Notes: generated by a model from the sequence alone, not told the origin. Positions 30,049 through 64,000 are shown, counted from the first letter of the stretch. The stretch is DNA of 64,000 nucleotides from Burkholderiales bacterium (GCA_014860355.1 JACZJV010000050.1:14733-78732), one strand, 5' to 3'. Translations and numbers: made by a program.

Positions 30049-30050
30049 GT

Positions 30051-31399: not shown

Positions 31400-31856
31400 G
31401 TCTTTCCCTGAAAGTTGTTCCACCCATTATCCAGTGTTGCGTGACTCCATGACAAATTTTCGAATGACCGTCCCCCGCCCGGCGGTTCGCGCCTGTGCGC
31501 CGTGGGCATGGTCACGCGCGGTTCCACTGTATTTTACCCAAACTATCCTGCCGGGTTCCCTGGAGGCGGCCATTTCCCGCAAGGCGCCTGCTTGCAGCCG
31601 CGCGCTGCCGGCCACACGAATGGCGTGTCGCCGCGTGCATCGCTGCATCTGATTGCGATGGCAACCGTGTCATTCGTCGGCATTTGTCGTTGCTCGGCCA
31701 GAAGCGGTCCGCGAAGATTATCTTCTATATAATGGCCCGGTCATCGCGCCGGGAAGCCCGGATAAACGAGCCGACAGTCCATTGATTTTCCTGTTACCGC
31801 GCAACAGCGAATATTCGACTTTGTTTTGCCGACTGATCCACCAAGAGGAGAACATC

Positions 31857-48619: not shown

Positions 48620-49435
48620 TCAACGCGCGTCGTTGAGCCTCCAGTCGTAATCGAGGAATTCGAGACCGTAGTCGCCGCGCCGGATCCGCGCCTGCGCCTG
48701 CGGCGTATCTGCCAGGCGCTCGGCGTATCTGGCGAATGTCGCCGTGAGCGAGGCGAAGCCGGCGTGGCCCTGCTCGAAGTCCTTGCCGTACCAGTCGAAC
48801 AGCTCGGATACGAGCAGGGTGTTGCGCTCGGCATCGTAGCGGTTGCGCGTACGGTCGGAGAGGAAGCGGCGCATGCCCTCTTCCAGTTGCGCATCCAGCC
48901 GCTCGGCGCTATAGGCCTCGTCGCGCAGCATCGGGCAGCCGATCGAGGCGCACACCAGCGCAGCGTGGATGCGCGGTTCGTCGAAGGCGCCGGGGGCGCG
49001 GATCATGCCCTGTTCGATGTCGTCGAGATGGCGTTCGCCGCCGAGCAGGACGAAGAACCTGCGTTTCCACGGCGACTGGAACACGCTGCCCAGATCATTG
49101 ATCGACGCGAGCTCCGGGTACCTGGAGAGGATCAGTTCGACGGTGTAGGCGTTATAGGCGTTGATCAGAAACGCGAGCCGCTGCTGCCTGGTCCAGCCGC
49201 GGTACTCCGCCATGCTTACGGCGGACAGGCCCTCCAGATAGGCCTTGAGCCGCTGGTGCTCGGCCTGTACGCCGGCATAGCGCAGCTGCGATGCATTGCC
49301 GCCCTGAATCAGCACCACATTGTCTTTCAGCAGCGCGGTCCACGCCGCGTGACTGTGATCGAAAGCGTGTGCCGTGGCGGCCGTGAGCATGAGGACGAGG
49401 GCGGCGAGCCAGCGCTTCGAGGCTGGCGCCTTCAT
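48620..49435 (-). CDS. secreted DUF547 domain protein
   Basis: ATG 49435 overlaps the upstream stop (ATGA). Signal peptide MKAPASKRWLAALVLMLTAATAHA. INAYNA and HAALVCASIGCP motifs of DUF547. Confidence 0.75.
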   Translation of the reverse strand: MKAPASKRWLAALVLMLTAATAHAFDHSHAAWTALLKDNVVLIQGGNASQLRYAGVQAEHQRLKAYLEGLSAVSMAEYRGWTRQQRLAFLINAYNAYTVELILSRYPELASINDLGSVFQSPWKRRFFVLLGGERHLDDIEQGMIRAPGAFDEPRIHAALVCASIGCPMLRDEAYSAERLDAQLEEGMRRFLSDRTRNRYDAERNTLLVSELFDWYGKDFEQGHAGFASLTATFARYAERLADTPQAQARIRRGDYGLEFLDYDWRLNDAR

Positions 49436-51576
49436 CCGCGCCGCCAGGCGTGGAAGCGCTCCACCCATTCGAGCAGCTTTTGCGGCGCGTGCGCCTTCTT
49501 CCACACGCCCGCCGCATACTTGTTCGCTTCCGCCATGGTCGGGTAGATATGGATGGTGCCGAGGATCTTGTTGAGCCCGATGCCGTGGCGCATCGCCAGC
49601 ACGTATTCGGCGATCAGCTCGCCGGCATGCTCGCCGACGATGGTGACGCCGAGTATGCGGTCCTTTCCGGGTACGGTGAGCACCTTGACGAAGCCGTGGG
49701 CCTCGCCATCGGCGATTGCGCGGTCCAGGTCGTCGATGCCGTAGATGGTCACTTCGTAGGGAATCGCGCGCTCCTTCGCCTCGGTCTCGTTCAGCCCCAC
49801 CCGCGCCGCTTCCGGGTCGACGAAAGTGGCCCAGGGTATGACTGAATAATCGGCGCGGAATTTCTTGAACGGATCGAACAGCGCATTGACCGCCGCGTAC
49901 CAGGCCTGATGCGCCGCCGTATGGGTGAACTGATACGGCCCGGCGACGTCGCCGGCGGCATAGATGTTGGGAAATCTGGTCTGCAGGAATTCGTTCGTCT
50001 CGACCGTGCGCTGCGCCGCGATGCCCAGCTCCTCCAGACCGTAGCCTTGCAGATTCGCGACCCGGCCGACGGCAACCAGCAGCGCGTCGAACGGGATGCG
50101 CACGTCCGCGCCCGCATGTTCGGCGACGAGGATCTTTTCGCCGCCTTCGACGACGAACTGCTTCGCCTTGTGATTGACCAGGACGGCTATGCCTTCGGCG
50201 CGAAAGTGCTGCGCCACCAGTTCGGACACCTCCGGATCCTCGCGGATGAGGATGCGCGGCGCCATTTCCACCTGCGTGACTTCGGCGCCGAGCCGGGCAA
50301 AGGTCTGGGTCAGCTCCGAGCCGATCGGGCCGCCGCCCAGCACCACCAGGCGCCGCGGCAACTGGCGCAGGTCCCACACGGTATCGGAGGTGAGATAGCC
50401 GACTTCCTCGATGCCCGGAATCGGCGGAACGAATGGGCGCGCGCCGGCGGCGATGACGATGGAACGCGTGCTCAGGCGCTCGCGCCCGCCGTCATTGCGC
50501 GTGATTTCCACCTCCCAGGGCGAGACGATTTTTGCCGTGCCTTCGATCACCTCCACGCCGAGTCCGGTATAGCGCTCGGCAGAGTCGTGGGGCGCTACGG
50601 TTTTGATGACGCGTTGCACGCGCTCCATCACCTCGGCAAAGTCAAACTCCGCCCGCGCGTCGCGGATGCCGAATTCAGGCGAACGGCGCATGTGGGCAAG
50701 CAGCCTGGCCGAGCGAATCAGGGCTTTTGAAGGCACGCAACCGGTATTCAGGCAGTCCCCGCCCAGTTTGTGCTTCTCCACCAGCGTGACCTTGGCCTTT
50801 ACCGCGGCAGCGATATACGAGGTGACCAGCCCTGCCGACCCGGCGCCGATCACGATCAGGTTGCGCTCGTAGCGCCGCGGTCTGTTCCAGCCGGCATAGA
50901 CCTTGTTCGTGCGCAGGCGCTCGGTGATTTTCTTGGCCAGCAGCGGAAAAATCCCCAGCAGCGCAAACGACGCCACAATCGCGGGCGAGAGGATGCCGGA
51001 CAAGGACTCGATTTTCGCCAGCTGCGTGCCGGCGTTCACATACACGATCGTGCCCAGCAGCATGCCGGCCTGGCTGACCCAGTAAAAGGTGCGCGTGCGG
51101 ATCGCCGTGAGCCCCATCACCAGGTTGATGACGAAGAAGGGGAACAGCGGCACCAGGCGCAGCGCGAGCAGATAGAAGCCGCCTTCGCGCTCGATGCCGG
51201 CATTGACGGCCTGCAAGCGCTCGCCGAATCGCTGTTGCACCCAGTCGCGCAGCAGGAAGCGCGAGGCGAGGAAGGCGAGCGTCGCGCCTGCCGTGGAAGC
51301 GAATGACACCAGGACCGTTCCCCAGAGCAGGCCGAAAACCGCACCGCCTGCAAGCGTCATTACCGCCGCGCCGGGCAGGGAAAGACCGGTGATCGCGACG
51401 TAGGCGAGGAAGTAGAACAGCGCCGCTTTTGCCGGCTGCGCCGCGCGCCAGGTTTCGATGGCAGCCTGCTGGCTCTTGAAAAAATCCAGACTCAGGTAGC
51501 GACCCAGATCGAAGAAGTAATAGCCGAGCGCGACGCCCAGCAGCACGGCAATCAGTACGAGGCGTTGACGGTTCAT
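49432..51576 (-). CDS. bifunctional TVP38/TMEM64 (DedA-related) membrane protein / class I pyridine nucleotide-disulfide oxidoreductase
   Basis: 714 aa. The N-terminal ~230 aa hold 5-6 TM segments of TVP38 type. The remainder has IGAGSAGL, the redox-active disulfide GGDCLNTGCVPSK, and the C-terminal HIYPTMAE His-Glu motif (mercuric/lipoamide reductase-like). Confidence 0.85.
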   Translation of the reverse strand: MNRQRLVLIAVLLGVALGYYFFDLGRYLSLDFFKSQQAAIETWRAAQPAKAALFYFLAYVAITGLSLPGAAVMTLAGGAVFGLLWGTVLVSFASTAGATLAFLASRFLLRDWVQQRFGERLQAVNAGIEREGGFYLLALRLVPLFPFFVINLVMGLTAIRTRTFYWVSQAGMLLGTIVYVNAGTQLAKIESLSGILSPAIVASFALLGIFPLLAKKITERLRTNKVYAGWNRPRRYERNLIVIGAGSAGLVTSYIAAAVKAKVTLVEKHKLGGDCLNTGCVPSKALIRSARLLAHMRRSPEFGIRDARAEFDFAEVMERVQRVIKTVAPHDSAERYTGLGVEVIEGTAKIVSPWEVEITRNDGGRERLSTRSIVIAAGARPFVPPIPGIEEVGYLTSDTVWDLRQLPRRLVVLGGGPIGSELTQTFARLGAEVTQVEMAPRILIREDPEVSELVAQHFRAEGIAVLVNHKAKQFVVEGGEKILVAEHAGADVRIPFDALLVAVGRVANLQGYGLEELGIAAQRTVETNEFLQTRFPNIYAAGDVAGPYQFTHTAAHQAWYAAVNALFDPFKKFRADYSVIPWATFVDPEAARVGLNETEAKERAIPYEVTIYGIDDLDRAIADGEAHGFVKVLTVPGKDRILGVTIVGEHAGELIAEYVLAMRHGIGLNKILGTIHIYPTMAEANKYAAGVWKKAHAPQKLLEWVERFHAWRRG

Positions 51577-51691: not shown

Positions 51692-52660
51692 TCACTTTGC
51701 GCGCAAATCGCTGTATTGGGACATTTCGGCGATCAATCGGGCGATGGCCGCGCGCTCGGCCGCCGGGTCGACTTCGTGGCGCCGCGCTATTACCGCGGCT
51801 TGCAGTTCGGCTAGCCAGTCCGGGTCGCGCTGGGCGCGCGCGAGTTGCGCCGCCAGCGCGGCCTCGTCCGCGTATGGGTAGTAGCCCGGATAGTCTGCGC
51901 CTAGCAGGCCGATATTGCCGGGGATGGCCGAGGCGATGACGGGCACGCCCGCGGCTATCGCTTCGGATACGACGTGCGCCCCGCCTTCCATGCGGCTCGA
52001 GATGACCATCGCGTGACTGCGCGCCAGCCAGCGCATCGCGCCTGCATGATCGAGTTCACCCAGCCAGCGATAGCGTGGCTCGGCGCGCATCAGCGCGCGT
52101 GCCTGCTGCCCCATTTCAGCCGTCATCGCCTGGCCCAGCTGCACCACGCGGATCGCGCTCTGCGGCAGCTGCGCCAGCGCGAGGGCGGCGCGAAACGGGT
52201 CTTTCTCCTCGCGCAAATGGCCGATCACGGTGACCAGAAAAAAGCTGCGCGGCGGAGTTTGCCGCCGCAGGGCGCGCTGCGACTGGAAAATTACGCTGGT
52301 TTTCGCGCGCTGCGCCGCGCCCAGTTCGTCCAGGCCCAGAGGCTGCAGCACCACCATGCGGTCAGCGAGGCCTAGCGACGCGCGCGCGTCGGCGTCGCTG
52401 CGTATGTCGCGGTACAAATCGGTGCCGGTGAGCACCAGGACCAAAGGACGCTGCGGGTGCGTCGACTTCCACGCCTTCATCGCCGCGTGGCTGCGGCGCG
52501 CATGCAGGGCAATGAGCAGCTCGCAATCGCGCCCGTCCCAATCGAGCGCAAGCTGCGTCACGTGCCCGAGCGCGCGCAAATGCCGCGCCCAGCGCAGCGC
52601 GGTATTGCGGTTGCCCTGGCGCGAACCCGGCGCGGCGGGCGTTACAATGAGTATGCGCAT
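51692..52660 (-). CDS. senB: GT-B glycosyltransferase of the selenosugar synthase (SenB) type
   Basis: 322 aa. The N-terminus MRILIVTPAAPGSRQGNRNTALRWARHL matches my memory of the selenium-neighbourhood glycosyltransferase family later named SenB. A GT1 C-terminal E-x7-E-like region is present (SRMEGGAHVVSEAIAAGVPV). Divergent from an EgtB-like gene. Confidence 0.75.
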   Translation of the reverse strand: MRILIVTPAAPGSRQGNRNTALRWARHLRALGHVTQLALDWDGRDCELLIALHARRSHAAMKAWKSTHPQRPLVLVLTGTDLYRDIRSDADARASLGLADRMVVLQPLGLDELGAAQRAKTSVIFQSQRALRRQTPPRSFFLVTVIGHLREEKDPFRAALALAQLPQSAIRVVQLGQAMTAEMGQQARALMRAEPRYRWLGELDHAGAMRWLARSHAMVISSRMEGGAHVVSEAIAAGVPVIASAIPGNIGLLGADYPGYYPYADEAALAAQLARAQRDPDWLAELQAAVIARRHEVDPAAERAAIARLIAEMSQYSDLRAK

Positions 52661-52736: not shown

Positions 52737-53939
52737 ATGAGAGACAATATAGCAGAGCCGTCGCCGCGCGCCGGCTGGCCCGATTTTTCGCTCTACCGGC
52801 CGCATCCGCCGGCAGCCCGACTGCGCGCCTGGCTGGTCGAGGCGCACGACCTGAGCTCGTTGCTGACGCAGTTCCTCGGCGACGAAACCATTGTCGTTCC
52901 GCTGCTGCCGATCGTCAATCCGCCGCTGTGGGAACTCGGTCACATCGCCTGGTTCCAGGAGTTCTGGCTGCATCGCGGCGGGGATTTTTCCCGGCCCTCG
53001 ATGCTGCGCGACGCGGATCGCTGGTATGACTCGGCGCGCGTCGCGCACGACACGCGTTGGTCCCTGGACCTGCCCGACGCACAGGCGACGCGGGGCTATG
53101 TCGAAGGAGTGTATAAGCGTACGCTGGCTTTGTTCGAGCGCGAATCACCGGGCGACGCGCGCGCGTACTTTACCCAGCTGGCGATCTTTCACCAGGACAT
53201 GCACAACGAGGCCTTCTGCCACATGTGGCAGACGCTCAGTTACCGGATGCCGCTAGCCTGGGCGCAAGCGGATGCAGCGGACGCAGCCGATCTGGAGCTT
53301 CCCGCAGGCAGGTTTGCGCTCGGGGCTAGCCGCGGCTCGGGCTTCGTATTCGACAACGAAAAATGGGCGCACGAGGTGGACTTGCGCGACTATGCGATTG
53401 CGCGCCGTGCGGTGAACAACGCCGAGTACCGCGCATTCGTCGAAGCGGGCGGCTACGCCCGGCGCGAATTATGGAGCGAGGCCGGTTGGGCCATGCGCGA
53501 GCGTTTGGCACTGGCGCATCCGCGCTACTGGAGGCGCGCTGCGCAGGGCTGGTCGGTGCGCCGCTTCGATCGCTGGGTGCCGCTGGCGGAGCACGAACCG
53601 GTGATGCACGTGAGTTGGTATGAGGCCGAGGCCTATTGCGCCTGGGCCGGCCGGCGCCTGCCGAGCGAGGCGGAATGGGAACGCGCCGCGGCAACCTGCC
53701 CCGATCGCTTTGACAGCGGCCGGGTCTGGGAATGGACTTCCAGCCGTTTCGCTCCCTATCCGGGCTTCACTGCCGACCCCTACAAGGAATACTCGGAGCC
53801 CTGGTTTGCCGACGAGCATCGCGTGTTGCGCGGCGGCAGCTTCGCCACGCCGCCGCGGCTGCTGCGCAGGACCTGGCGCAATTTCTACGCGCCCGCGCGA
53901 GCGGACATGTTCTGCGGATTTCGCAGCTGCGCGCTCTGA
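52737..53939 (+). CDS. senA: EgtB-like DinB_2 + FGE-sulfatase-domain C-S/C-Se bond-forming enzyme (selenoneine synthase SenA type)
   Basis: In-frame ATG 52737; the ORF part upstream overlaps senB. The iron triad is WELGHIAWF plus FHQDMHNE (H, HxxxHxE). The FGE-like C-terminal domain has RLPSEAEWE and RGGSF. Confidence 0.75.
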   Translation: MRDNIAEPSPRAGWPDFSLYRPHPPAARLRAWLVEAHDLSSLLTQFLGDETIVVPLLPIVNPPLWELGHIAWFQEFWLHRGGDFSRPSMLRDADRWYDSARVAHDTRWSLDLPDAQATRGYVEGVYKRTLALFERESPGDARAYFTQLAIFHQDMHNEAFCHMWQTLSYRMPLAWAQADAADAADLELPAGRFALGASRGSGFVFDNEKWAHEVDLRDYAIARRAVNNAEYRAFVEAGGYARRELWSEAGWAMRERLALAHPRYWRRAAQGWSVRRFDRWVPLAEHEPVMHVSWYEAEAYCAWAGRRLPSEAEWERAAATCPDRFDSGRVWEWTSSRFAPYPGFTADPYKEYSEPWFADEHRVLRGGSFATPPRLLRRTWRNFYAPARADMFCGFRSCAL

Positions 53940-53942
53940 AAT

Positions 53943-54029
53943 CCGGGCAGTGTAGCCGGCGCGCGTGCGCCGCATGCAAGGTATACTGCTTTCCCGCGGT
54001 GCAATTCGACCGCGTAGCTACACGGTCCG
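53943..54029 (+). other. structured senA-phnD intergenic leader (possible three-way junction)
   Basis: Outer helix 53943-53956 / 54017-54029 (12 pairs, one mismatch, one G-U) encloses hairpins 53957-53972 (6 bp, GCGU loop) and 53995-54014 (6 bp). Confidence 0.25.
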
Positions 54030-54078
54030 CCGCGGCGGCCCTTGGTACACCATCCAACATTCTCCGGAGTACGTCTAC

Positions 54079-54936
54079 ATGAGCGCTATCTTCCGCATTT
54101 TGGCCCTTGTGCTGTTCGGCTTGTCCTTTGCGCATGGCACTGCAGCCCAGGGCGTGCTCAGGGTATCCGCCATACCCGACGAAGCGCCGACCGAGCTGCA
54201 GCGCAAGTTCAAGCCGCTGGGCGAATATCTCGCGCAGGAAACCGGCATGAAGGTCGAGTTCACCCCGGTGAGCGACTACGCCGCAGTGGTCGAATCGCTG
54301 GCCACGAAGAAACTCGACCTCGCCTGGCTGGGGGGATTCACCTTCGTACAGACCAAGCTGCGCACCAAGGGCAGCGCCATACCCATCGTGCAGCGCGCCG
54401 AGGACGAAGTATTCACCAGCCGCTTCATCGTGCCCTCCGGCAGCAAGGCCAAGACCCTGGCCGATCTCAAGGGCAAGACCTTTGCCTTCGGTTCGCCCTC
54501 ATCGACCTCCGGACACCTGATGCCGCGCTATTTCCTGCTGCAGGCGGGCATCGATCCGGACAAGGATTTCAAGAACGTTGCGTTCTCGGGCGCGCACGAT
54601 GCGACGGTGGCATTCGTGGCCGGCGGCAAGGCCGAAGCCGGCGTGCTCAACGCCTCGGTCTGGGACAAGCTGGTGCAGGCAAAGAATCCCAACGCGCTGA
54701 AGGTCAGGGTGCTCGCGACCACGCCGCCCTATTTCGACTACAACTGGACCGTGCGCGGCGACCTGGACCCGGCCCTGGTGAAAAAGCTCACCGCCGCCTT
54801 TCTCAAGCTCGACCCGGCCAATCCGGCGGATAAGGCGATACTGGACCTGCAGCGCGCATCCAAGTTCATTCCGACCAAGGCGTCGAACTACGACGGCATC
54901 GAGAATGCCGCCAAATCGGCCGGCCTGATCAAATGA
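54079..54936 (+). CDS. PhnD-family ABC transporter periplasmic substrate-binding protein
   Basis: Internal ATG; signal peptide MSAIFRILALVLFGLSFAHGTAAQ. PhnD-type fold markers (LRVSAIPDE, FGSPSSTSGHLMPR). Confidence 0.8.
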   Translation: MSAIFRILALVLFGLSFAHGTAAQGVLRVSAIPDEAPTELQRKFKPLGEYLAQETGMKVEFTPVSDYAAVVESLATKKLDLAWLGGFTFVQTKLRTKGSAIPIVQRAEDEVFTSRFIVPSGSKAKTLADLKGKTFAFGSPSSTSGHLMPRYFLLQAGIDPDKDFKNVAFSGAHDATVAFVAGGKAEAGVLNASVWDKLVQAKNPNALKVRVLATTPPYFDYNWTVRGDLDPALVKKLTAAFLKLDPANPADKAILDLQRASKFIPTKASNYDGIENAAKSAGLIK

Positions 54937-54977
54937 CCCGACGCAGGTCTGCGCGCTGAATCGATGGAGCGCCTTGC

Positions 54978-55847
54978 GTGAGCTTTGAGCTCGACCGCAT
55001 AGGCTTGATACATTCCAACGGCCAGGCGCAGGGTCAACGGGCTTTGCGTGCGGTGTCGATCAGCGCCGCGCGCGGCGAGCGCCTGGCGATCATCGGCCCT
55101 TCCGGTGCGGGCAAGACTACGCTGCTGCGCATACTCGCCACTTCGATCCGTCCTACCGAGGGACGCGTCAGCGTGCTCGGTACGAATCCCTGGCAGCTTA
55201 GCAGCAGAGAGCTCAGGCGCCTGCGCAGCGGCGTCGGATTCATCCACCAGGCGCCGCCGATACCGCCGCGCCAGCGCGTGATTACCGCAGTGATCGCCGG
55301 GCGCCTGGGCCAGTGGCCCTGGTGGAAATCGGCGCTGTCGCTGATCTACCCGGCCGACATCGCCGGTCCGCGCGAGCAACTGGCGCGCCTGGATCTCGCC
55401 GACCGCCTGTTCGATCGCTGCGACCGGCTCTCCGGCGGGCAGCTGCAGCGCGTCGGAGTGGCGCGCGTGTTGTACCAGCGCCCGGATTTGCTGCTGGCGG
55501 ACGAACCGGTTTCGGCCATGGATCCTGCGCTCGCCGATCTCACCGTGGGCCAGCTGCACGCCGAAGCGCAAAGCCGCGGGGTCACGCTGGTCGCCAGTCT
55601 GCACGCGGTGGACATAGCGCTGCGCTGGTTCCCGCGCGTGATCGGACTCAAAGCGGGTGAGCTCGTATTCGACCTGCCGCCTGCGAAGGTGAGCGAGAGC
55701 GTGCTGCGCGACCTCTATGCCTCCGAAACCGGCGTGTTGCCCTCGCAGGACAATCAGCCGTTCCATGCGTCGTTCGAGGGATATGCCACGGACGACACCC
55801 CGGGCGGCAGCGGGCAGGTCCCGCTCGCGCCGCCGCGCGTGATTTGA
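54978..55847 (+). CDS. phnC: phosphonate-type ABC transporter ATP-binding protein
   Basis: GTG start. Walker A GPSGAGKTT, signature LSGGQLQRV, Walker B LLLADEP. Confidence 0.9.
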   Translation: MSFELDRIGLIHSNGQAQGQRALRAVSISAARGERLAIIGPSGAGKTTLLRILATSIRPTEGRVSVLGTNPWQLSSRELRRLRSGVGFIHQAPPIPPRQRVITAVIAGRLGQWPWWKSALSLIYPADIAGPREQLARLDLADRLFDRCDRLSGGQLQRVGVARVLYQRPDLLLADEPVSAMDPALADLTVGQLHAEAQSRGVTLVASLHAVDIALRWFPRVIGLKAGELVFDLPPAKVSESVLRDLYASETGVLPSQDNQPFHASFEGYATDDTPGGSGQVPLAPPRVI

Positions 55848-55859
55848 TTCCCTTGCGCC

Positions 55860-56696
55860 ATGTCATCTGGTTTGCAACCCCCGCAGCTGCGTGATCCGGA
55901 TGCACCCAGGCGGGCTGGCTGGGTGCTGCTTGCGCTGCTGGTGTTGTGGCCGCTCATGCAGATCGCCGAATTCCGTCCGTCCGACTTGTTCGACGCGCGC
56001 AACCTCGAGGTGATGGGCGGCTTCCTCGGGCAGTTCTTTCCGCCGAATATGAGCGGCGATTTTCTCGCCTACGCGCTCAAGGCGACCATAGAGACGCTGG
56101 CGATGGCGACCGCCGGCATCGCGCTCGCGATGTTGCTCGCGCTGCCGCTGGGCCTGGTGCTCACGCACAGCCTCTCGGTTTCGCGCATCGGCCCCGGGTC
56201 GGGTCGCGGCGCGGGCGAGGCGGTGCGTGCGGCCGCGCGCGCGACGCTGCTGATACTGCGCGGCATACCCGAACTGGTCTGGGCCCTGCTGCTGGTGCGC
56301 GCTTTCGGGCTGGGGCCGGCCGCTGGTGTGCTGGCCATCGCGCTCACCTACGGCGGTATGCTGGGGAAGGTCTATTCCGAGATACTGGAATCCGGCGATA
56401 CGCGCCCCGCGCGCGTGCTGCTCGAATCCGGCAGCGGCCGCCTGATGGCGTTCTTTTACGGACTGTTGCCGGGGGCCGGACAGGAGCTGGCTTCCTACAC
56501 CATCTATCGCTGGGAGTGCGCGGTGCGTGCTTCGGTGATCATGGGCTTTGTCGGCGCCGGCGGCCTCGGGCAGTTGATGGACCAGTCGATGAAAATGCTC
56601 AACGGCGGCGAGGTCTCGACCATCCTGATCATATTCCTGCTGCTGGTGCTGCTCGCCGACGCGCTCAGCGTTTTTCTGAGGAAGCTGCTCGCATGA
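55860..56696 (+). CDS. phnE: PhnE-type ABC transporter permease
   Basis: 278 aa, 6 TM segments, PhnE-like IPELVWALLLV segment. Confidence 0.85.
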   Translation: MSSGLQPPQLRDPDAPRRAGWVLLALLVLWPLMQIAEFRPSDLFDARNLEVMGGFLGQFFPPNMSGDFLAYALKATIETLAMATAGIALAMLLALPLGLVLTHSLSVSRIGPGSGRGAGEAVRAAARATLLILRGIPELVWALLLVRAFGLGPAAGVLAIALTYGGMLGKVYSEILESGDTRPARVLLESGSGRLMAFFYGLLPGAGQELASYTIYRWECAVRASVIMGFVGAGGLGQLMDQSMKMLNGGEVSTILIIFLLLVLLADALSVFLRKLLA

Positions 56697-56724
56697 GCAC
56701 GGCAGCTCGCCTCGAGCTGAGCCC

Positions 56725-57537
56725 GTGAGCACCGCGACTTTTGCCGAGCGGCGCGCGGCCATGGGCTTTTGCCTGCAGTGCTGGCTGACGCTGTTGCTGC
56801 TGGCCTTGCTCGTCTGGGCCAGCTTCGCCTATCTGGCGCTGGATTTGTCGCGCTTGTTCAGCCTGGAATCGGGCCGCGGCATGCTGCAGTTCATCCTGCG
56901 CTTTTTTCCGCCCGATACCAGCGCGCAGTTCCTGCGCAAGATCGCCGGGGCCACGCTCGAAACCCTGGCCATATCCGCGATCGGCACGCTGCTCGCCGCG
57001 GGCGCCGGACTGCTGCTGGCGCTGCCGGCGGCGGGTCGTCTGGGTCCGGTGTTCAAAGCGCTGACCCGCTTTCTCCTCAACGCCCTGCGCTCGGTGCCCG
57101 AACTCGTGTGGGCGGCATTGATGGTGCTGGCTGCAGGGCTGGGGCCTTTCGCCGGCACGCTCGCCCTGGCATTGCACACCTCGGGGGTGCTGGGGCGACT
57201 CTACGCGGAGAGCCTGGAAAATGCGCCGCCCGAGCCGGCACAGTCTCTGGTGGAAAGCGGTGCGCCGCCGGCGCTGGCCTTCGGCTACGCCACGCTGCCC
57301 TTGATCGCGCCGCAGCTGCTCTCCTACAGCCTGTACCGCTGGGAGATGAACATCCGCATGGCCACGGTGCTGGGCTTCGTCGGCGCCGGCGGCCTGGGGC
57401 AGATGCTCTACTACGAGCTGTCGCTGCTGCACGAAGCGCAGGCCTCGAGCGTCATCTTCGCCATGCTCGCATTGGTGGTGTTCGTCGACGCGGCGAGCGC
57501 CTGGGTGCGCCGCCGCCAGATGCGCGCGGGCGGATGA
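56725..57537 (+). CDS. phnE: PhnE-type ABC transporter permease (second)
   Basis: GTG 56725 (ATG 56761 is the alternative). Paralogous to the preceding permease (VPELVWAALMVL). Confidence 0.8.
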   Translation: MSTATFAERRAAMGFCLQCWLTLLLLALLVWASFAYLALDLSRLFSLESGRGMLQFILRFFPPDTSAQFLRKIAGATLETLAISAIGTLLAAGAGLLLALPAAGRLGPVFKALTRFLLNALRSVPELVWAALMVLAAGLGPFAGTLALALHTSGVLGRLYAESLENAPPEPAQSLVESGAPPALAFGYATLPLIAPQLLSYSLYRWEMNIRMATVLGFVGAGGLGQMLYYELSLLHEAQASSVIFAMLALVVFVDAASAWVRRRQMRAGG

Positions 57538-57555: not shown

Positions 57556-58776
57556 CTAATCCGCGAGGCGGGTCGGGATGCTGATTTCGGCGTGCAGCGT
57601 TCGATGTACCGGACACTTATTGGAGATCTCCAGCAGCTTGGCGCGCTGCTCCTCGCTCAAGGGGCCTTCCAGCCGTATCAGCCGCTCGATGCGGTCGACC
57701 TTGCCCTCCCTGGTTTCGCATTCCGCGCAATCTGCCGCGTGAATTTTGTCGTGTCTTAGCTCGACAGTGGCGCGCTCCAGCGGATAGCCCTTGAGATCGG
57801 CATACATGCGCATGGTCATCGAGGTGCACGCGCCGAGACCGGCGAGGAGCAGGTCGTAGGGCGAAAGTCCGCTGTCCAGGCCGCCGGCCGCGACCGGCTC
57901 GTCCGCGCGGATCACATGCTGCCCGACGAGCACGCGCTGACTGAATTTGCCCTCGCGGGTTTCCTGCACCACCACCTTGCCGGGCACCGCAGACGCAGCG
58001 GTGGCCGCCGTGGCGCCGAGGTAGCGCATCGCCCAGGATGCCAGGATGCTGCCGGTGTACAGCGCGTCCTCGCGCCGCGACAGCATGTGGTCGGCCGGAT
58101 CGAGGGAAACAAAACTCTTCGGGTGTTTCGCCGTGGTAAAGATCCGCGTTGCATTGTCGATGCCGACTACGCTGTCGCGCGGCGTATGCATGACCAGCAG
58201 CGCCTTGCCCATGTGCGCGAGTTTGTCGCCGAGCTTGCTGCCCGAGATGTCGTCCAGGAACTGCCTGCGTATGCGAAAGGGACGCTCGCCGATGTCGACT
58301 TCGGCCTCGCCTTCGCGCTCGATCGCGGACTTGTCCTTGATCAGCTGCAGCACATGCGCCGGATCGATAGGCGAGCCTATGGTCGCCACCGCGACCGCTT
58401 CGGGCACGCGCGCCGCTGCGGCGAGGACCGCGGTGCCGCCGAGGCTGTGGCCGACCAGGAGTGCGGGCGCGCTATAGTGCTGGCGCAGGTAGTCTGCTGC
58501 AGACACCAGGTCCTCCAGGTTCGAAGAAAAATTCGTGCTGGCAAAATCCCCGCCGCTGCCGCCCAGACCGGTGAAGTCGAAGCGCAGCACCGCGATGCCG
58601 CGCTCGGCCAGCGCCGCACTGACGTAAGTCGCGGCCTTGCTTTCCTTGGAGCAGGTAAAGCAATGCGCGAACAGGGCGTAGGCGATCGGCGCCGCTGACG
58701 GCGGCAGGTCGAGGCGCGCGGCGAGCAGGGCGCCTATGGCGCCGGGAAAGGAAAGCGTAAGCGACTGTATGGTCAT
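57556..58776 (-). CDS. bifunctional alpha/beta hydrolase / OsmC family protein
   Basis: 406 aa. The N-terminal half has the nucleophile elbow GHSLGG. The C-terminal ~140 aa has OsmC-type Cys pairs (GLGACTSMT ... NKCPVH). Confidence 0.85.
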   Translation of the reverse strand: MTIQSLTLSFPGAIGALLAARLDLPPSAAPIAYALFAHCFTCSKESKAATYVSAALAERGIAVLRFDFTGLGGSGGDFASTNFSSNLEDLVSAADYLRQHYSAPALLVGHSLGGTAVLAAAARVPEAVAVATIGSPIDPAHVLQLIKDKSAIEREGEAEVDIGERPFRIRRQFLDDISGSKLGDKLAHMGKALLVMHTPRDSVVGIDNATRIFTTAKHPKSFVSLDPADHMLSRREDALYTGSILASWAMRYLGATAATAASAVPGKVVVQETREGKFSQRVLVGQHVIRADEPVAAGGLDSGLSPYDLLLAGLGACTSMTMRMYADLKGYPLERATVELRHDKIHAADCAECETREGKVDRIERLIRLEGPLSEEQRAKLLEISNKCPVHRTLHAEISIPTRLAD

Positions 58777-58819: not shown

Positions 58820-59794
58820 CTAGATCGCCGCGTGGCACAGCGCGAACCAGTCGTTCGCGTCGGTCCACGCCTGGATGCGGTCAAAGCCGGCGCGCGCCAG
58901 CAGCGTCTTGAAATCAGTCAGCGCGTACTTGTAGCTGTTCTCCGTATGGATGCGCTGGCCCTGGCGAAATGCGCGTGTGCCGCCGGGCCAGCGCACGCTG
59001 AGGTCGTGCCTGGCCTCCAGGTGCATTTCGATGCGCGAGGCTGCGGTGTTGAACTGCGCCCGGTGGCGCCAGTCGCGCACGGCGAAATCGCTGCCGATCA
59101 GCGCATTCACGTTGTTGAGCAGGTTCAGGTTGAATGCCGCGGTGACCCCGAGCGCGTCGTCGTAGGCAGTCTGCAACAGGGTTTCGGACTTGAGCAGATC
59201 GACGCCGATCAGCAGGCCGCCGCCATGGGGGCCTGCGCACTGCGCCCGTATGCCGGCAAGGAAAGCGAGCGCCTGCTCCGGCGTGAAGTTGCCGATCGAT
59301 GAGCCGGGGTAGAAGAACAGGCGCTTGTCGCGGCTGACCGCATCGGGCAGGCGCAGGCCCGAGGAGAAATCGGCGCCGATGCCGAGCATTTCCATCTGCG
59401 GAAACTCACGCTGCAGCTGCGACATCGACTGCCGCAGATAATCCACGGAGATGTCCACTGCGACATACTGGCTCGGCCGCAGCGCAGCAAACAGGCTGCG
59501 CGCCTTTTCGCAATTGCCCGCGCCGAGGTCGATCAGCGCCGGCGCGGGGCCGGCGGCGCGCGCCACGCTGTCGCGGCAGGCTAGGAGCAGCGCTTTTTCC
59601 GTGCGCGTCGGATAGTATTCGGGCAGTTCGGTAATGGCATCGAACAGGCGCGAGCCCAGCGCGCCATAGAGGTGCTTGAACGACACCCATGGCGCGTCTG
59701 CCATCAGTCCCGCCACGATCGCGGCGGCCTCCGCGCCCGGCGCAAGCGCATCGGCGGGAAACGAAAAGAATGTCGGGCCGGATTGCAGCGTCAT
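58820..59794 (-). CDS. egtD: L-histidine N(alpha)-methyltransferase (hercynine synthase)
   Basis: 324 aa. FDAITELPEYYPTRTE, DLGAGN, YDDALGVTAAFNLNLL, RIEMHLEA and ENSYKY blocks match mycobacterial EgtD as I recall it. Confidence 0.9.
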   Translation of the reverse strand: MTLQSGPTFFSFPADALAPGAEAAAIVAGLMADAPWVSFKHLYGALGSRLFDAITELPEYYPTRTEKALLLACRDSVARAAGPAPALIDLGAGNCEKARSLFAALRPSQYVAVDISVDYLRQSMSQLQREFPQMEMLGIGADFSSGLRLPDAVSRDKRLFFYPGSSIGNFTPEQALAFLAGIRAQCAGPHGGGLLIGVDLLKSETLLQTAYDDALGVTAAFNLNLLNNVNALIGSDFAVRDWRHRAQFNTAASRIEMHLEARHDLSVRWPGGTRAFRQGQRIHTENSYKYALTDFKTLLARAGFDRIQAWTDANDWFALCHAAI

Positions 59795-59862: not shown

Positions 59863-60825
59863 TTAGCGGTCCCGCTTCAAAGAACTGCCGTCTCCGGCAT
59901 GGAACACCGCGGTGTGCGGGTTGAACGCGTACCAGGCGAACCAGTAGCCGACCACCGCCGGAAGCTGCCGCCCATCGGCGGCGTGGGCCGTGGCGCGCGC
60001 AGCCTGGCGGTCGAAGCGGATGGTCAGCGCAGTGTCACCTATCCGGTCGGACACCACGCCGGTCGTTTTCCCCAATTCGACGAAGGGATACGCCTTGGTC
60101 TGTTCGCCTATCCTGATACCGAGCACCCGTTCCTTGGGATGAAAGCCCGCAGAGCGGAACGCCACCGGGAACATGATGTCCTCGCTGCTCTCATATCCGG
60201 CGTAGGGGTCGCGCGCGTAAGGTCGCGTCTGCCCGGTATTGGTAGTCAGAACCCCGGTCGCCGGGTGTAAGCTGCGCCAGTCGGCCCAGCTGGTATGGGT
60301 CAGCGGCAGCAGCTTCAGGCGCCGACCTTTCTTCGGGCCGCTGACCGCCTGCGCCAGCAACTGCGACCACAGCGACTGTGTCTGCCGGTCGTACAGCAGC
60401 ACGTCGCTGTTGTAGAGCAGTCCGGAGACGCCGAAGCTGAGCACCTGACCATCGACGCTGGCATCGAAGGCCGCGCCGGTGCCGCACAGCGGACAGAAAG
60501 TGATCACCACCGCCTCCGCGCCGAAACGGTCGTTGACCACTTCGTGCCAGTTGAGTATGCGCACCGGATAGGCGCGCGCGATGCCCTTGCGCACCATGCC
60601 GAGTACGGCGTCATCGTCGCGCAGGAAAGTCGCAAGCCCTGCCTCGGTGAATTCGGGCTGGTCGATCGCGGGTATGCCGTCCCTGGGCGGTCCGCCTGCG
60701 TGGATCTCGTCGCTGGCGATCAATGATCCCTGCAGGTCGAAGCCGTTCATCTGCTGCGCGTAGGAGAGGACCGGCGCGAGGCCGGCGAGCAGGGCGAAGT
60801 ATGATACCAGGCGTCGAAATCTCAT
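59863..60825 (-). CDS. secreted DUF3179 domain protein
   Basis: Internal ATG (MRFRRLVSYFALLAGLAPVLSYAQQ signal peptide). PRDGIPAIDQP, FCPLCGTG and LLYNSDVLLYDRQT motifs of DUF3179. Confidence 0.8.
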   Translation of the reverse strand: MRFRRLVSYFALLAGLAPVLSYAQQMNGFDLQGSLIASDEIHAGGPPRDGIPAIDQPEFTEAGLATFLRDDDAVLGMVRKGIARAYPVRILNWHEVVNDRFGAEAVVITFCPLCGTGAAFDASVDGQVLSFGVSGLLYNSDVLLYDRQTQSLWSQLLAQAVSGPKKGRRLKLLPLTHTSWADWRSLHPATGVLTTNTGQTRPYARDPYAGYESSEDIMFPVAFRSAGFHPKERVLGIRIGEQTKAYPFVELGKTTGVVSDRIGDTALTIRFDRQAARATAHAADGRQLPAVVGYWFAWYAFNPHTAVFHAGDGSSLKRDR

Positions 60826-60937: not shown

Positions 60938-61612
60938 CTAGGTAGGCGGCCGGCGCAACCGGTCGCGCACGAGTTTCACCGCGAACGGGATCAGGGTAAT
61001 GGCACCCAGTGCCAGCACCGATATCATGATCTGATCGGACTCACCGGTGGCCATCTCGCCGCCGAAATGGGCCAGCAGAAAGCTCGCCGGTACGATGCCG
61101 ATGAGCGTCGCGAGCGCGAAGCGCCAGAACGAGAGCACCGTCAGGCCCGCGGCATAGCTCACAATATCGAAGGATATGAACGGCAGGAGACGGCTGACCA
61201 GCACGATACCCATGAGCGTGTTTTGCGATCCGAGCAGGCCCAAGGACAATCGCTCGCCGAACCAGCGCCGCATGGTGTCCCCGCCGAGCCAGCGTGCCAG
61301 GCCGAAGGCGGTGATCGCGCCGATCTCCGCGCCCACGAGCACATAAAGCGTGCCCCAGACATGGCCATACGCGGCGCCGGCAGCCATGGCGATGGGTGCA
61401 CTCGGAATCGGGCTCACCATGATTGCCAGCACCATCAGGCCGATCACCAGCAGCGGGCCCCATGCCCCCAGGCGCGCAATGTGATCGTGCAGTTCGGCCC
61501 GGTTCAGGATGGTCGCCAAGGCGCCGGTTTCGTGCAACAGCCAGTAGGTCGCTGCCAGCAGCGCCAGCAGCGCGAGTACGGCGAGCAGTTTGAACCGCAG
61601 CGACTGCGTCAC
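60938..61612 (-). CDS. TVP38/TMEM64 family (DedA-related) membrane protein
   Basis: GTG 61612 overlaps the SelD-fusion stop (GTGA). 224 aa, 5-6 TM segments, MVSPIPSAPIAMAAGAAYG core. The rest of the 758-aa track ORF is antisense to the SelD fusion gene. Confidence 0.75.
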   Translation of the reverse strand: MTQSLRFKLLAVLALLALLAATYWLLHETGALATILNRAELHDHIARLGAWGPLLVIGLMVLAIMVSPIPSAPIAMAAGAAYGHVWGTLYVLVGAEIGAITAFGLARWLGGDTMRRWFGERLSLGLLGSQNTLMGIVLVSRLLPFISFDIVSYAAGLTVLSFWRFALATLIGIVPASFLLAHFGGEMATGESDQIMISVLALGAITLIPFAVKLVRDRLRRPPT

Positions 61613-63894
61613 GCGCCCAGCCTGAGGACGATAGGCGCCAGCGCTTCGCCCTGCGCGAGCACCCGGCCGATGGCCGCAGCATGCGTGTATCCGAGCGCGT
61701 GCAGGGCGCCGAGGCAGGCCTCGGCGCGCTCCCCGGGGACGCTGGCGAGCAGCCCACCTGCTGTCTGCGGGTCGAAGATCAGCGCATAGCGCGGATGGCT
61801 CAGCGCCTCCTGCTGGTTGCGCAGCGCGCGGCGCAGGCGCACGTTTGCCGGCTGCAGCGAACTCAGGATGCCGGCGGCGCTGGTTTGCTCCGCGCCTTCC
61901 AGTACGGGCAGCGACGCGAGGTCGAGTTCCGCGTCCACGCCCGAGGGGCGTGTCATTTCGACCAGGTGTCCGAGCAAACCGAAGCCGGTCAGATCGGTGC
62001 AGGCGGTCGCGCCGTGCTCGCGCAGACACTGCGCGCCCAGGCGGTTCGATTGGCACATCGAGGCGAGCGCCGCATCGATCCAGCGGCCACGGGCCGCGAG
62101 CAGGGCATGCGCCGCAAACAGCGTACCGGTGCCGATAGGCTTGGTCAGGATCAGGACGTCGCCGGCTCGCATGCCGCTCTTGCGCAGCACCGGCGCCAGG
62201 TTCTCGTCTATCAAGCCGTTCACGGCAAAGCCCAGCGCCAGTTCCTTGCCCTCGCCGGTGTGCCCGCCCACGAGCGCGCAGCCGGCGTCGTTGAGCACTT
62301 CGATCGCGCCCGACATCATCTGAAACAGCAGGTCCTCCTGCTTGGCCTCCAGGCCGGCGGGCACGGTGACGATCGCGGTGGCCGACTGCGCCTCGGCGCC
62401 CATCGCGTATATGTCGCCCAGGGCGTGATTGGCCGCGACCTTGCCGAAGATGTAGGGATCGTCGATGAAGGCGCGGAAGAAATCCACCGTGTGTACCATG
62501 GCCTTGCCCGGCGGCACGCGCACCACCGCCGCATCGTCGGGCGCATGCAGTCCGATGAGCACGTCGTCGCGCGCTACCGGGACTAGCGCGCCGAGCGCGC
62601 GCGAGAGCACGGTGGCGCCGACTTTCGCGCCGCAGCCGCCGCAGCGCATCGCCACTGCCGAGATCGCCTGCGCGGCCTCCTCCTGGTCGAGTTTGATCGG
62701 CGAGGGCGTCGCATGGGCGGGCCCGGCCTGCATTGCGGGAAACTGCTCGAATTTGTGCATGAAGCGGCGGTCGATCCAGTCCTTCCAGCGCCACACCCAG
62801 TCGCCGCGCAATGCCAGCGCAGCGCGCGAGGCCACGGCGTAGCGATCGCCGGTGCTGATCAGTGCCAGCCAGCGTGTTTGCGGGCGGTAGGGCCTCAATG
62901 GCCTGCCTTCCACAGCGCGGCGCAGATTCTCTGCGAGCGGCTTGCCCTGGCGCACGGCGAATACCCCGGCTTTCTCCAACGGCTGGTTCACCATGCCGGC
63001 GATATCGCCCGCGGCAAACACCTTTGGATCGCTCACGGTCTGCAGCGTGTCGCCGACCTGAATGAATCCATCCGCATCGAGTGCGAGGCCGGTTCCGGCG
63101 AGCCAGGGTGCGCCGCCGGCACGCGTGACCCAGACGATCTCGTCGGCATCCACCGACATGCCGGCCGTAGTCTGCAGGCGCGTCGCGGATACCTGGTTGA
63201 CCTCGGCCTTGCAATGCAGTTCGACACCGCGCTCGGCCAGCACGCGTTCGAATGTACGGCGCACCGAAGCATTGTGGGTTTTCAGGATCACCGGGCCGCG
63301 CGTCAGCAGGTGGAAGCTGAGTTCGTCCGGATTGCGCCCAGCCGCGCGCAATTCCTTGCGCAATCGGTATTGCATGGCCAGAGTCAACTCGACCCCGCCG
63401 GCGCCGCCGCCGACCACGGCGATGCGCGTGGCCCCGGCGTGCCGGCGCACGCGCTCGAGCAGCAGCAGCCAGCGCTGGTTGAATCCATTGATCGGTTTGA
63501 CCGGCACTGCGTGCTCGCTCGCACCCGCCACATCGGCCATTTGCGGCGTGGAGCCGATGTTGATCGACAGGTAGTCGTAGGGCACCGGCGGACGATTGCG
63601 GCAGAGGACTTTGCCCGCGTCGCGGTCCAGGCCCAGTGCTTCATCGTGAAAGTAGCGCGCGCCGGCAAAGCGAGCCAGCCTCGACAGATCGATGTGGACT
63701 TCGTCGTAGCTGTAGTGTCCGGCGATGTACCCCGGCAGCATGCCGGAGTAGGGTGTGTGGGTGTCGCGGCAGATGAGCGTCAGGCGGACCCCGGGCACGG
63801 GATGCATGCCGAAGCGCTTGAGCACGACTACATGGCTGTGGCCACCGCCGACCAGGACGATATCCCTGAGTACCGGCTGATCCGGCGATAGCAT
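61609..63894 (-). CDS. selD: bifunctional NDH-2-like FAD/NAD(P) oxidoreductase / selenide, water dikinase
   Basis: 761 aa. The N-terminal ~400 aa has VLVGGGHSHVV and VVGGGAGGVE dinucleotide folds. The C-terminal part has SelD motifs MRCGGCGAKVG (Cys form, no in-frame TGA), GDIYAMGA and LVGGHTGEG. Confidence 0.9.
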   Translation of the reverse strand: MLSPDQPVLRDIVLVGGGHSHVVVLKRFGMHPVPGVRLTLICRDTHTPYSGMLPGYIAGHYSYDEVHIDLSRLARFAGARYFHDEALGLDRDAGKVLCRNRPPVPYDYLSINIGSTPQMADVAGASEHAVPVKPINGFNQRWLLLLERVRRHAGATRIAVVGGGAGGVELTLAMQYRLRKELRAAGRNPDELSFHLLTRGPVILKTHNASVRRTFERVLAERGVELHCKAEVNQVSATRLQTTAGMSVDADEIVWVTRAGGAPWLAGTGLALDADGFIQVGDTLQTVSDPKVFAAGDIAGMVNQPLEKAGVFAVRQGKPLAENLRRAVEGRPLRPYRPQTRWLALISTGDRYAVASRAALALRGDWVWRWKDWIDRRFMHKFEQFPAMQAGPAHATPSPIKLDQEEAAQAISAVAMRCGGCGAKVGATVLSRALGALVPVARDDVLIGLHAPDDAAVVRVPPGKAMVHTVDFFRAFIDDPYIFGKVAANHALGDIYAMGAEAQSATAIVTVPAGLEAKQEDLLFQMMSGAIEVLNDAGCALVGGHTGEGKELALGFAVNGLIDENLAPVLRKSGMRAGDVLILTKPIGTGTLFAAHALLAARGRWIDAALASMCQSNRLGAQCLREHGATACTDLTGFGLLGHLVEMTRPSGVDAELDLASLPVLEGAEQTSAAGILSSLQPANVRLRRALRNQQEALSHPRYALIFDPQTAGGLLASVPGERAEACLGALHALGYTHAAAIGRVLAQGEALAPIVLRLGA

Positions 63895-64000
63895 CGCGAA
63901 CTTCCTTTCAAGGACGGCGCGCCGCGTGGAATTACGGGCGCATATGATGCGCGCGGGCGGGCCGACTCAGTCCGCGTCTTTTTCGAGCACCTCGGGGATT

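Follow-up and report, generated by a model that had tools for sequence, protein, structure and literature searches.

Why should a bacterial selenium locus carry, on either side of its selenoneine genes, two gene sets that each combine a VTT/TVP38 membrane domain, a flavoprotein and a secreted protein with a cysteine motif? We addressed this question in a 64,000-nucleotide stretch of DNA from a Burkholderiales bacterium (GCA_014860355.1 JACZJV010000050.1:14733-78732; the window, with positions counted from its first letter). A first-pass annotation of this DNA had proposed that the two modules arose by shuffling the same three pieces and that they act as parallel units for the import and reduction of selenium. 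The reading that we favor, and regard as reasonably probable, is that the modules are halves of one recurrent accessory set that has merged with the sen genes and that would serve the reductive handling of metalloids. Its architectural part is very probable; its functional part, which we draw from sequence and gene context, is put forward tentatively, as possible rather than probable.

The recurrent set comprises a VTT-reductase fusion, a coupled periplasmic DUF547 protein and a TIGR03169 flavoprotein, and it usually lies with genes of the ArsS type. In the lineage of the window, SelD has been joined to TIGR03169, a second VTT protein is coupled to this flavoprotein, and the set has merged with senB/senA, egtD, an ATP-binding cassette (ABC) importer, a hydrolase-OsmC fusion and a DUF3179 gene. 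The related loci L100/L101 contain the same pieces and zero sen genes: ArsS, two hypothetical genes and an Ndh-SelD fusion overlapping a free-standing VTT gene are convergent with the VTT-reductase fusion, DUF547 and a TIGR04283+TIGR04282 fusion. Their free VTT protein and SelD fusion are each 85% identical to the counterparts in the window. Because L100 holds both modules side by side without sen genes, the modules form one cluster and not two parallel units.

Translation and Pfam bore out the annotated architecture of the first module, in which a TVP38 domain is fused to a class I disulfide reductase. The gene at 49432-51576 (minus strand; Pfam, NCBIfam) encodes a protein of 714 amino acids with PF09335 at residues 71-184, PF07992 (Pyr_redox_2) at 239-558 and PF02852 (Pyr_redox_dim) at 580-688; the VTT part spans residues 1 to ~228 (nucleotides 50893-51576) and the reductase part residues ~229-714. 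The reductase contains GGDCLNTGCVPSK, with the redox-active motif CLNTGC, and HIYPTMAE, with the His-Glu dyad, and thus has both features of a class I (group 1) flavoprotein disulfide reductase, CxxxxC and the dyad. Aligning nine divergent fusion sequences revealed that C274, C279, H675 and E682 are invariant, that the reductase has a conserved C-terminal tail in addition, and that the VTT domain has no conserved cysteine. The fusion has at least 8000 homologs, which NCBI names 'bifunctional TVP38/TMEM64 family protein/FAD-dependent oxidoreductase'; identity to proteins so named is 57-89% overall, 80-82% over the full length for those of Accumulibacter and 58-63% for those encoded on plasmids. 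By domain order and by full-length similarity it is a COG0398 DedA-reductase fusion, and among fused COG0398 DedAs the partner seen most often is PF07992 with PF02852 (Todor et al. 2023, PMC10127716). The window protein has the domain order and invariant catalytic residues in common with the fusions of that study, which gives them only as a statistic tied to aerobic metabolism and does not describe their gene neighborhood.

The nearest solved relatives of the reductase in the PDB are MerA and LipDH, the best being 5x1y (MerA; 251 bits). Like MerA, it is a class I FAD/NAD(P)H disulfide oxidoreductase with CxxxxC; unlike MerA, it has a VTT domain at its N-terminus in place of NmerA, keeps the His-Glu dyad, and ends in ...WVERFHAWRRG, which contains no cysteine and hence no MerA-type C-terminal pair. 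Identity as MerA was rejected on the missing cysteine pair, the missing NmerA domain and a TIGR02053 score of 379 bits, below the cut-off of 454.

In an ATGA at 49432-49435, the TGA stop of the fusion overlaps the ATG of the DUF547 gene (48620-49435, minus strand; 271 amino acids; PF04784, 87 bits), which is therefore predicted to be translationally coupled to the fusion gene upstream. Both this overlap and the secretion of the DUF547 protein had been annotated, and the protein does begin with a signal peptide, MKAPASKRWLAALVLMLTAATAHA, followed by FDH. Its cysteine motif, CASIGCP, is of the CxxxxCP type, which is present in 26 of 26 DUF547 homologs that neighbor a fusion (24 of the 26 as CAS[IV]GCP). 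DUF547 had no sequence match in the PDB. An AlphaFold2 model reached a mean pLDDT of 76, with low confidence in the cysteine loop, and a Foldseek search of this model against the PDB returned nothing better than E=1; thus, the fold adds nothing on mechanism.

All parts of the second module were present as annotated, namely a flavoprotein-SelD fusion, a GTGA overlap, a free TVP38 protein and a secreted DUF3179 protein with FCPLCGTG. The fusion of an NDH-2-like TIGR03169 flavoprotein to SelD, which is the SenC of the cluster, lies at 61609-63894 (minus strand) and scores above the cut-offs of both TIGR03169 (528 versus 310) and TIGR00476 (298 versus 125); with the look-alike family TIGR04369 ('not SelD') it scores 467, below the cut-off of 700. 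Its SelD site is CGGCGAK, a CxxC within AMRCGGCGAKVG, so that it has all the marks of an Ndh-SelD fusion. Such fusions with CxxC have been described before (Zhang et al. 2008, PMC2398784; Mariotti et al. 2015, PMC4561486), and CxxC is reported for all of them (PMC2398784). The nearest solved relatives of the TIGR03169 flavoprotein in the PDB are NDH-2, FSP1 and SQR. With the known fusions (PMC2398784, PMC4561486; TIGR03169 'Nterm_to_SelD') the window protein shares an N-terminal NDH-2-like flavoprotein and a C-terminal SelD of the cysteine type; it differs from them in belonging to a selenoneine cluster and in being translationally coupled to a VTT membrane protein.

That VTT protein (60938-61612, minus strand; 224 amino acids; COG0398; PF09335, 84 bits) starts with a GTG that overlaps the TGA stop of the Ndh-SelD gene at 61609-61612. 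The pair is conserved in L099 and L100/L101, and it is stable within the lineage of the window and only there. We rejected the free VTT protein as a general partner of Ndh-SelD, as it is absent beside Ndh-SelD in L005, L014, L018, L037, L043, L128, L137, L094 and L095. About 110 nucleotides past the free VTT gene lies that for DUF3179 (59863-60825, minus strand; PF11376, 307 bits), with a likely ATG start at 60825 after GGAGGA, a signal peptide and the motif FCPLCGTG (CxxC). The DUF3179 family includes selenocysteine-containing (UxxC/T) members (PMC9312934), and NCBI likewise uses '(seleno)protein' names; the window protein would be a cysteine form of this selenoprotein family, with FCPLCGTG presumably corresponding in position to UxxC/T. 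DUF3179 found no sequence match in the PDB, and it is absent from the close relatives L096 and L100. Together with EgtD and the hydrolase-OsmC fusion, it is an addition specific to the lineage of the window. A 96-residue open reading frame (ORF) beside DUF547 in Cupriavidus, matched to DUF3179 by phmmer, was discarded, having no Pfam match and a translation that looks non-coding. The closest plasmid-borne DUF3179 (54% identical; L093 6323-7601, Thiothrix subterranea plasmid) lies in a periplasmic redox setting, next to genes for a GDCCVxC (seleno)protein, DUF4395, a large thioredoxin-domain protein and cytochrome c peroxidases, and sen genes are absent there.

As the first-pass annotation had stated, the two modules do flank senB (51692-52660, minus strand) and senA (~52737-53939, plus strand). 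That the same three pieces recur in them did not survive comparison. The two VTT domains are 27% identical over 142 amino acids (25% in a wider comparison) and fall in separate clades, which speaks against the recent paralogy that alignment might have revealed; both belong to the broad COG0398/TVP38 subfamily, so that they are not from unrelated subfamilies, though their clades differ. Among eight organisms, fusion-type VTT domains are 37-85% identical to one another and 19-28% identical to free VTT proteins, and the free VTT protein of L096 represents a third clade (30% identical to that of the window, 52% to a Burkholderia glumae protein). The two flavoproteins of the window have in common only the GD motif for FAD (E 0.006), and DUF547 and DUF3179 showed no similarity when compared. 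With weakly similar VTT domains, distinct flavoprotein classes and unrelated secreted proteins, domain shuffling of the same pieces is unsupported. Two VTT genes at one locus are nevertheless more than coincidence, since two or more COG0398 genes are rare in Betaproteobacteria: of 307 genomes from this class, 221 lack such a gene and just 13 carry more than one (Table 1, PMC10127716).

As a precedent for uptake, the first-pass annotation had invoked DedA/TVP38-type proteins linked to selenite in E. coli. The DedA work in question was reportedly done in Ralstonia (Cupriavidus) metallidurans CH34, not in E. coli. In PMC10127716, that study (Ledgham et al. 2005) is listed among the DedAs of COG0586 and not COG0398, and the precedent is weakened to that extent. 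Relatives of both window VTT domains are named TVP38/TMEM64 or YdjX, names that correspond to COG0398; by this listing, the selenite DedA would belong to another subfamily.

We then turned to what the fusion travels with elsewhere. Lists of homologs are dominated by relatives at least 77-80% identical, and diversity was obtained by tblastn on plasmids and by a metagenome scan that used a consensus as first query. An Acinetobacter plasmid carries ArsS, the fusion, an overlapping DUF547 gene, TIGR04283, TIGR04282, an ArsM-like methyltransferase, a phosphate transporter and MtnP, while plasmids of Catenovulum and Pseudoalteromonas carry a TonB receptor, the fusion, DUF547, an ABC transporter, a CDP-alcohol phosphatidyltransferase and a fatty-acid hydroxylase. 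On plasmids of Sphingopyxis, Pseudooceanicola and B. glumae, the fusion is accompanied by a free-standing flavoprotein of ~370 amino acids that passes TIGR03169 (330, 368 and 347 bits, respectively, versus 310) and matches the N-terminal half of the window SelD fusion at 36% identity. On a plasmid of Cupriavidus sp. KK10 (NZ_CP073678.1; L090 6959-9204), a separate reductase (506 amino acids) and VTT protein (242 amino acids), in the reverse order of the fusion and with a 4-nucleotide overlap, lie between ArsS and TIGR04283. This split and permuted pair indicates that the pairing of reductase and VTT is independent of their fusion.

Closer relatives revealed how the set and the selenium genes are combined. 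Accumulibacter (fusion 80% identical) has ArsS followed by the fusion and no sen genes nearby, while Sulfuritalea and another metagenome-assembled genome (MAG; 82%) have an extracytoplasmic function (ECF) sigma/anti-sigma pair, MsrB, MsrA, the fusion, TIGR04283, TIGR04282 and TIGR03169. In L096 (JGI contig Ga0335085_10000057, 1-12145; fusion 87%), ArsS, a hypothetical gene, a HAD hydrolase and Ndh-SelD precede an ABC operon of the selenate type, the last gene of which is a free VTT gene, and then senB followed by the fusion; ArsS, Ndh-SelD, the ABC operon and senB all fit into 12 kb. Nowhere in this 22-kb locus were senA, egtD, DUF547 or DUF3179 found, and senB might there contribute to some selenosugar compound that is not selenoneine. 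ArsS, TIGR04283 and TIGR04282 are all present in the relatives L100 and L097, and ArsS alone in L096. The order senB-fusion is conserved in L001/L099 as well as in L096; in the window, the two genes are read from one strand, senB first, across a gap of 115 nucleotides that has no terminator-like site.

Two conserved but unannotated proteins are encoded repeatedly in the stretch that separates ArsS from the fusion or SelD genes (L100 5143-7478; L096 424-1398; L110, L112, L125, L130, L140, L155, L160, L177): one of ~465 amino acids with a weak sodium:solute symporter match, the other of ~313-324 amino acids and unmatched in Pfam and NCBIfam. Genes for an ECF sigma factor and a small zf-HC2 anti-sigma factor immediately precede the SelD fusion in L099 (6869-7637) and the MsrB-MsrA-fusion operon in L097 (7650-8412) and L098 (8019-8781); the equivalent of the L099 position falls past the end of the window at 64000.

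To quantify these associations, we took a census of 80 metagenomic loci with fusions 58-80% identical to that of the window, with the consensus as first query to counter lineage bias and with partners counted up to 10 kb away. The most frequent neighbors were the glycosyltransferase TIGR04283 (33 of 80), ArsS (26) and TIGR04282 (25), followed by DUF547 and TIGR03169 (18 each; DUF547 also adjoins the fusion on three plasmids), a CDP-alcohol phosphatidyltransferase (17), an ABC binding protein of a second type (10), an ArsM-like methyltransferase (6) and the fatty-acid-hydroxylase family (5). At least one core partner was found at 61 of the 80 loci, and at 32 of the 36 that have at least 3 kb on both flanks. 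The neighborhoods come in two flavors, ArsS/glycosyltransferase (37 loci) and CDP-alcohol phosphatidyltransferase/ABC (18 loci), with both in one locus; TIGR03169 is present in either flavor. Selenium genes occur at few of the loci, SelD at 5 (two of them fused to TIGR03169) and senB at one. Free VTT, DUF3179 and EgtD are each found at none, which gives no support to free VTT and DUF3179 as general components. The only sen-positive locus, L102, has a fusion 69%, a SenB 42% and a SenA 41% identical to those of the window; it is independent of the window lineage and the second instance in which sen genes lie next to a cluster of this kind. An ECF sigma factor was considered as a conserved regulator and set aside: it occurs at 9 of the 80 loci versus 7 of 31 unrelated control loci, no convincing enrichment. 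These data suggest that the annotated pairing of VTT and flavoprotein is no accident, recurring as it does with TIGR03169, ArsS and sometimes SelD or sen genes, but that it is not a duplicated unit.

In the 'arsenosugar' neighborhood of ArsS, TIGR04283 and TIGR04282 (NCBIfam; formerly rSAM/selenodomain-associated), the fusion, DUF547 and TIGR03169 are thus regular members elsewhere, including in close relatives. The window differs in having senB directly upstream of the fusion, in the slot that is usually that of ArsS. Phmmer searches with three ArsS queries and with TIGR04283 and TIGR04282 queries found none of the three in the 64 kb, so that the window is not itself an ArsS-type cluster as defined by ArsS (TIGR04167) with TIGR04283/TIGR04282.

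How does the window compare with other sen clusters? We aligned 40 SenA representatives, scanned one genome per species and annotated 80 loci by phmmer with the window proteins as queries; ~45 of the 80 are true sen clusters, in which SenA adjoins SenB. Six of these ~45 have an Ndh-SelD fusion, and DUF547 and DUF3179 were found in none. A lone VTT match, in L046, is a fusion-type VTT ORF without a reductase ~4.5 kb from senA. Neither module is therefore a general sen component. In an acidobacterial MAG (Pyrinomonadaceae; L016 7015-10918), the gene directly upstream of senA-senB encodes a class I reductase that has no VTT domain; it is split over two overlapping ORFs, perhaps through a frameshift. 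Like the sen cluster of Variovorax paradoxus and ~800 other genomes (Kayrouz et al., bioRxiv 10.1101/2022.04.13.486033), the window has SenA, SenB, SelD (SenC), egtD and an ABC importer, and a co-located putative selenate transporter has been reported for many such clusters (same preprint). It differs from them in that its SenC is the Ndh(TIGR03169)-SelD fusion, followed by VTT and DUF3179, and in that its senB is followed by the VTT-reductase fusion and DUF547. The three genes that define a sen cluster, senA, senB and a selD homolog, are all present, SelD being 9 kb away in the same block, and the arrangement is syntenic in L001/L099.

This block is a single one, spanning 48.6-63.9 kb of the window (65% G+C) as judged by translation, Pfam and NCBIfam with curated cut-offs; the remainder encodes general metabolism. 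SenB, a selenosugar synthase, scores 403 bits with TIGR04348 (cut-off 300), and the divergent senA encodes an EgtB-like selenoneine synthase (NF041186, 502 bits versus 420). A putative selenate ABC importer follows on the plus strand (53965-57537), with a binding protein at 53965-54936 (TIGR04553, 373 bits versus 250), an ATPase at 54978-55847 (ABC_tran) and permeases at 55860-56696 and 56725-57537 (BPD_transp_1). On the minus strand, egtD (58820-59794; TIGR03438, 362 bits versus 291) encodes the histidine N-alpha-methyltransferase that makes hercynine. With SenA, SenB, EgtD, Ndh-SelD and TIGR04553 all above curated cut-offs, the first-pass annotation was right to see a selenium locus here, if not two parallel units within it. 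Between egtD and the ABC operon, an alpha/beta-hydrolase is fused to an OsmC-like domain (57556-58776, minus strand; Pfam Hydrolase_4/Abhydrolase and OsmC); this gene is kept only in L001/L099, occurs at 0 of the 80 fusion loci, and matches NCBIfam 'OsmC-related (seleno)protein' weakly, at 51 bits where the cut-off is 95.

Promoter and terminator scans of 47.8-64 kb did no better than on shuffled sequence, and Rfam, applied to all 64 kb with gathering thresholds, gave zero matches. Elsewhere in the window are a protein with three rhodanese domains (473-2296, plus strand), a molybdenum hydroxylase of the xanthine-dehydrogenase family with its FAD subunit (27754-31426, minus strand) and a 69-nucleotide tRNA-Gly(GCC) called by ARAGORN at 26987-27055 (minus strand) without Rfam support.

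What might the set do? Its place beside metalloid-sugar enzymes (ArsS, SenB), the TIGR03169-SelD fusions and the disulfide- or dichalcogenide-type reductase together make it the most economical proposal that the set handles selenium or arsenic species reductively at the membrane, at the expense of NAD(P)H, and reductive selenium supply by the set is plausible. Both flavoproteins would draw on NAD(P)H at the inner membrane face and keep the metalloid reduced. Candidate substrates are selenide for SelD and selenol/diselenide or selenotrisulfide intermediates for SenB/SenA, with trivalent methylarsenicals as the possible counterpart in ArsS clusters; a disulfide or dichalcogenide substrate fits the retention of CxxxxC and the His-Glu dyad. 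The VTT domains would tether the reductase and perhaps move anionic or lipid-linked species, and selenium uptake itself would proceed via the ABC transporter. Import is indeed better explained, and more simply, by the TIGR04553 ABC system of the same block than by the VTT proteins.

Several observations weigh against a metalloid role for the set, or against its tie to the sen genes. No VTT-reductase fusion lies within 10 kb at the ~45 other sen loci, and since those clusters do without either module, selenoneine synthesis itself does not require the set. On plasmids, Ndh-SelD fusions are found with mnmH and lack a neighboring VTT or DUF3179 gene, and the CDP-alcohol phosphatidyltransferase/ABC flavor (18 of 80 loci) has no ArsS or selenium gene, which speaks against a role confined to metalloids. 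Synteny at 85-89% protein identity is by itself no proof that senB and the fusion are functionally linked. One could then ask whether module A stands beside senB in this lineage by chance, with no functional tie to selenium: besides the other sen loci, the 80%-identical Accumulibacter ortholog has no sen genes nearby, and unrelated flanking genes (FAA hydrolase, polyhydroxybutyrate (PHB) depolymerase, penicillin amidase) are equally syntenic in L001 and L096. We consider this very unlikely, as the order senB-fusion has outlasted the rearrangements that removed senA, egtD and DUF547 from L096, the separate lineage L102 also has sen genes beside such a cluster, SelD occurs at 5 of the 80 loci, and the VTT-reductase fusion is regularly accompanied by TIGR03169, to which SelD is fused here. 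Two parallel import-reduction units, built by shuffling, are the least likely account of all and in our view improbable. Each module does pair VTT and a Pyr_redox_2 flavoprotein with a cysteine-motif protein bearing a signal peptide, with 4-nucleotide overlaps inside the modules; two COG0398 genes 9 kb apart are unusual for a betaproteobacterium; and Cupriavidus has a split and permuted reductase/VTT pair. Against this stand the divergence of the VTT clades, the differing flavoprotein classes and unrelated secreted proteins, the absence of DUF3179 and free VTT from the census and of DUF3179 from other sen loci, the single sen-free cluster of L100, the dedicated ABC importer of the locus and, as far as the listing goes, the place of the selenite DedA in COG0586.

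Defense against redox stress deserves more weight, although we still hold it to be rather unlikely. The genes would then form an ECF sigma/zinc anti-sigma regulon that maintains the redox state of thiols and selenols, for example by reducing diselenides of selenoneine or selenosugars or by countering envelope oxidants, and shared regulation rather than selenium supply would place the set with the antioxidant selenoneine genes. The ECF sigma and zf-HC2 genes upstream of the SelD fusion and of the MsrB-MsrA-fusion operons suit this idea, as do nearby genes for peroxiredoxin, thioredoxin, DsbD/CcdA, AhpD-like and OsmC proteins, the dyad typical of reductases of low-molecular-weight disulfides, and the class I reductase directly upstream of senA-senB in L016; the MsrAB, peroxiredoxin and ECF-sigma/zf-HC2 neighbors of some relatives fit general redox defense as well as they fit metalloid reduction. 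The sigma factor is, however, no more characteristic of fusion loci than of controls, the partners met most often belong to biosynthesis (ArsS, glycosyltransferases, CDP-alcohol phosphatidyltransferase) rather than repair, and the VTT domain has no conserved cysteine with which to relay electrons to a periplasmic DUF547 protein. A function in lipids, with the VTT proteins as scramblases or flippases of an arsenosugar- or selenosugar-phospholipid or a polyprenyl-phosphate sugar, the reductase and DUF547 modifying or sensing that lipid, and no reduction of selenium, is less likely than redox defense. COG0398 proteins are currently viewed as lipid scramblases and not anion importers, and they resemble the phospholipid scramblases of eukaryotes (PMC10127716), a view that also counts against the metalloid proposal. 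A weak UptA match was seen in the NCBIfam search, the CDP-alcohol phosphatidyltransferase and fatty-acid-hydroxylase genes recur at 17 and 5 of the 80 loci, and glycosyltransferases of TIGR04283/TIGR04282 are the most frequent neighbors of all. But the locus of the window has no lipid-synthesis gene, a disulfide reductase has no evident lipid substrate, and the association with SelD and TIGR03169 would be left unexplained. We thus retain one accessory set merged with the sen genes as the favored reading of the locus.

None of the parts is new in itself: the sen genes, the two fusions (Ndh-SelD and DedA-reductase) and the ArsS/TIGR04282/TIGR04283 families are all known. Our literature search found no paper on the neighborhood that the fusion shares with DUF547 and TIGR03169, or on the merging of that neighborhood with sen genes. 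What is new is accordingly the genomic context and not the parts, namely that one redox set accessory to ArsS-type genes has been combined with selenium genes, and it places the COG0398-reductase fusion, DUF547 and TIGR03169, all families of unknown function, in a genomic setting. If the association reflects general redox defense only, the finding is of modest, descriptive interest. At the other extreme, and in our estimate unlikely, the fusion, DUF547 and TIGR03169 would constitute a widespread and hitherto undescribed system that delivers reduced metalloid to the enzymes forming carbon-metalloid bonds, with selenide or selenol species going to SelD and SenB and trivalent methylarsenicals to ArsS, and the missing physiological route by which SelD is fed in aerobic bacteria.

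We know of no role for the flavoprotein half of Ndh-SelD fusions. Such fusions make up ~40% of cysteine-type SelDs in ocean metagenomes (PMC2398784), and free-standing TIGR03169 is now seen to travel regularly with a VTT-anchored disulfide reductase and DUF547, beside genes for arsenic- and selenium-sugar bonds. The finding bears on how SelD obtains selenide without poisoning the cell, and the accessory genes could affect the yield of selenoneine from selenite or selenate. Together, these observations give a genetically testable set of candidates for reductive metalloid handling, including the role of the Ndh half of Ndh-SelD.

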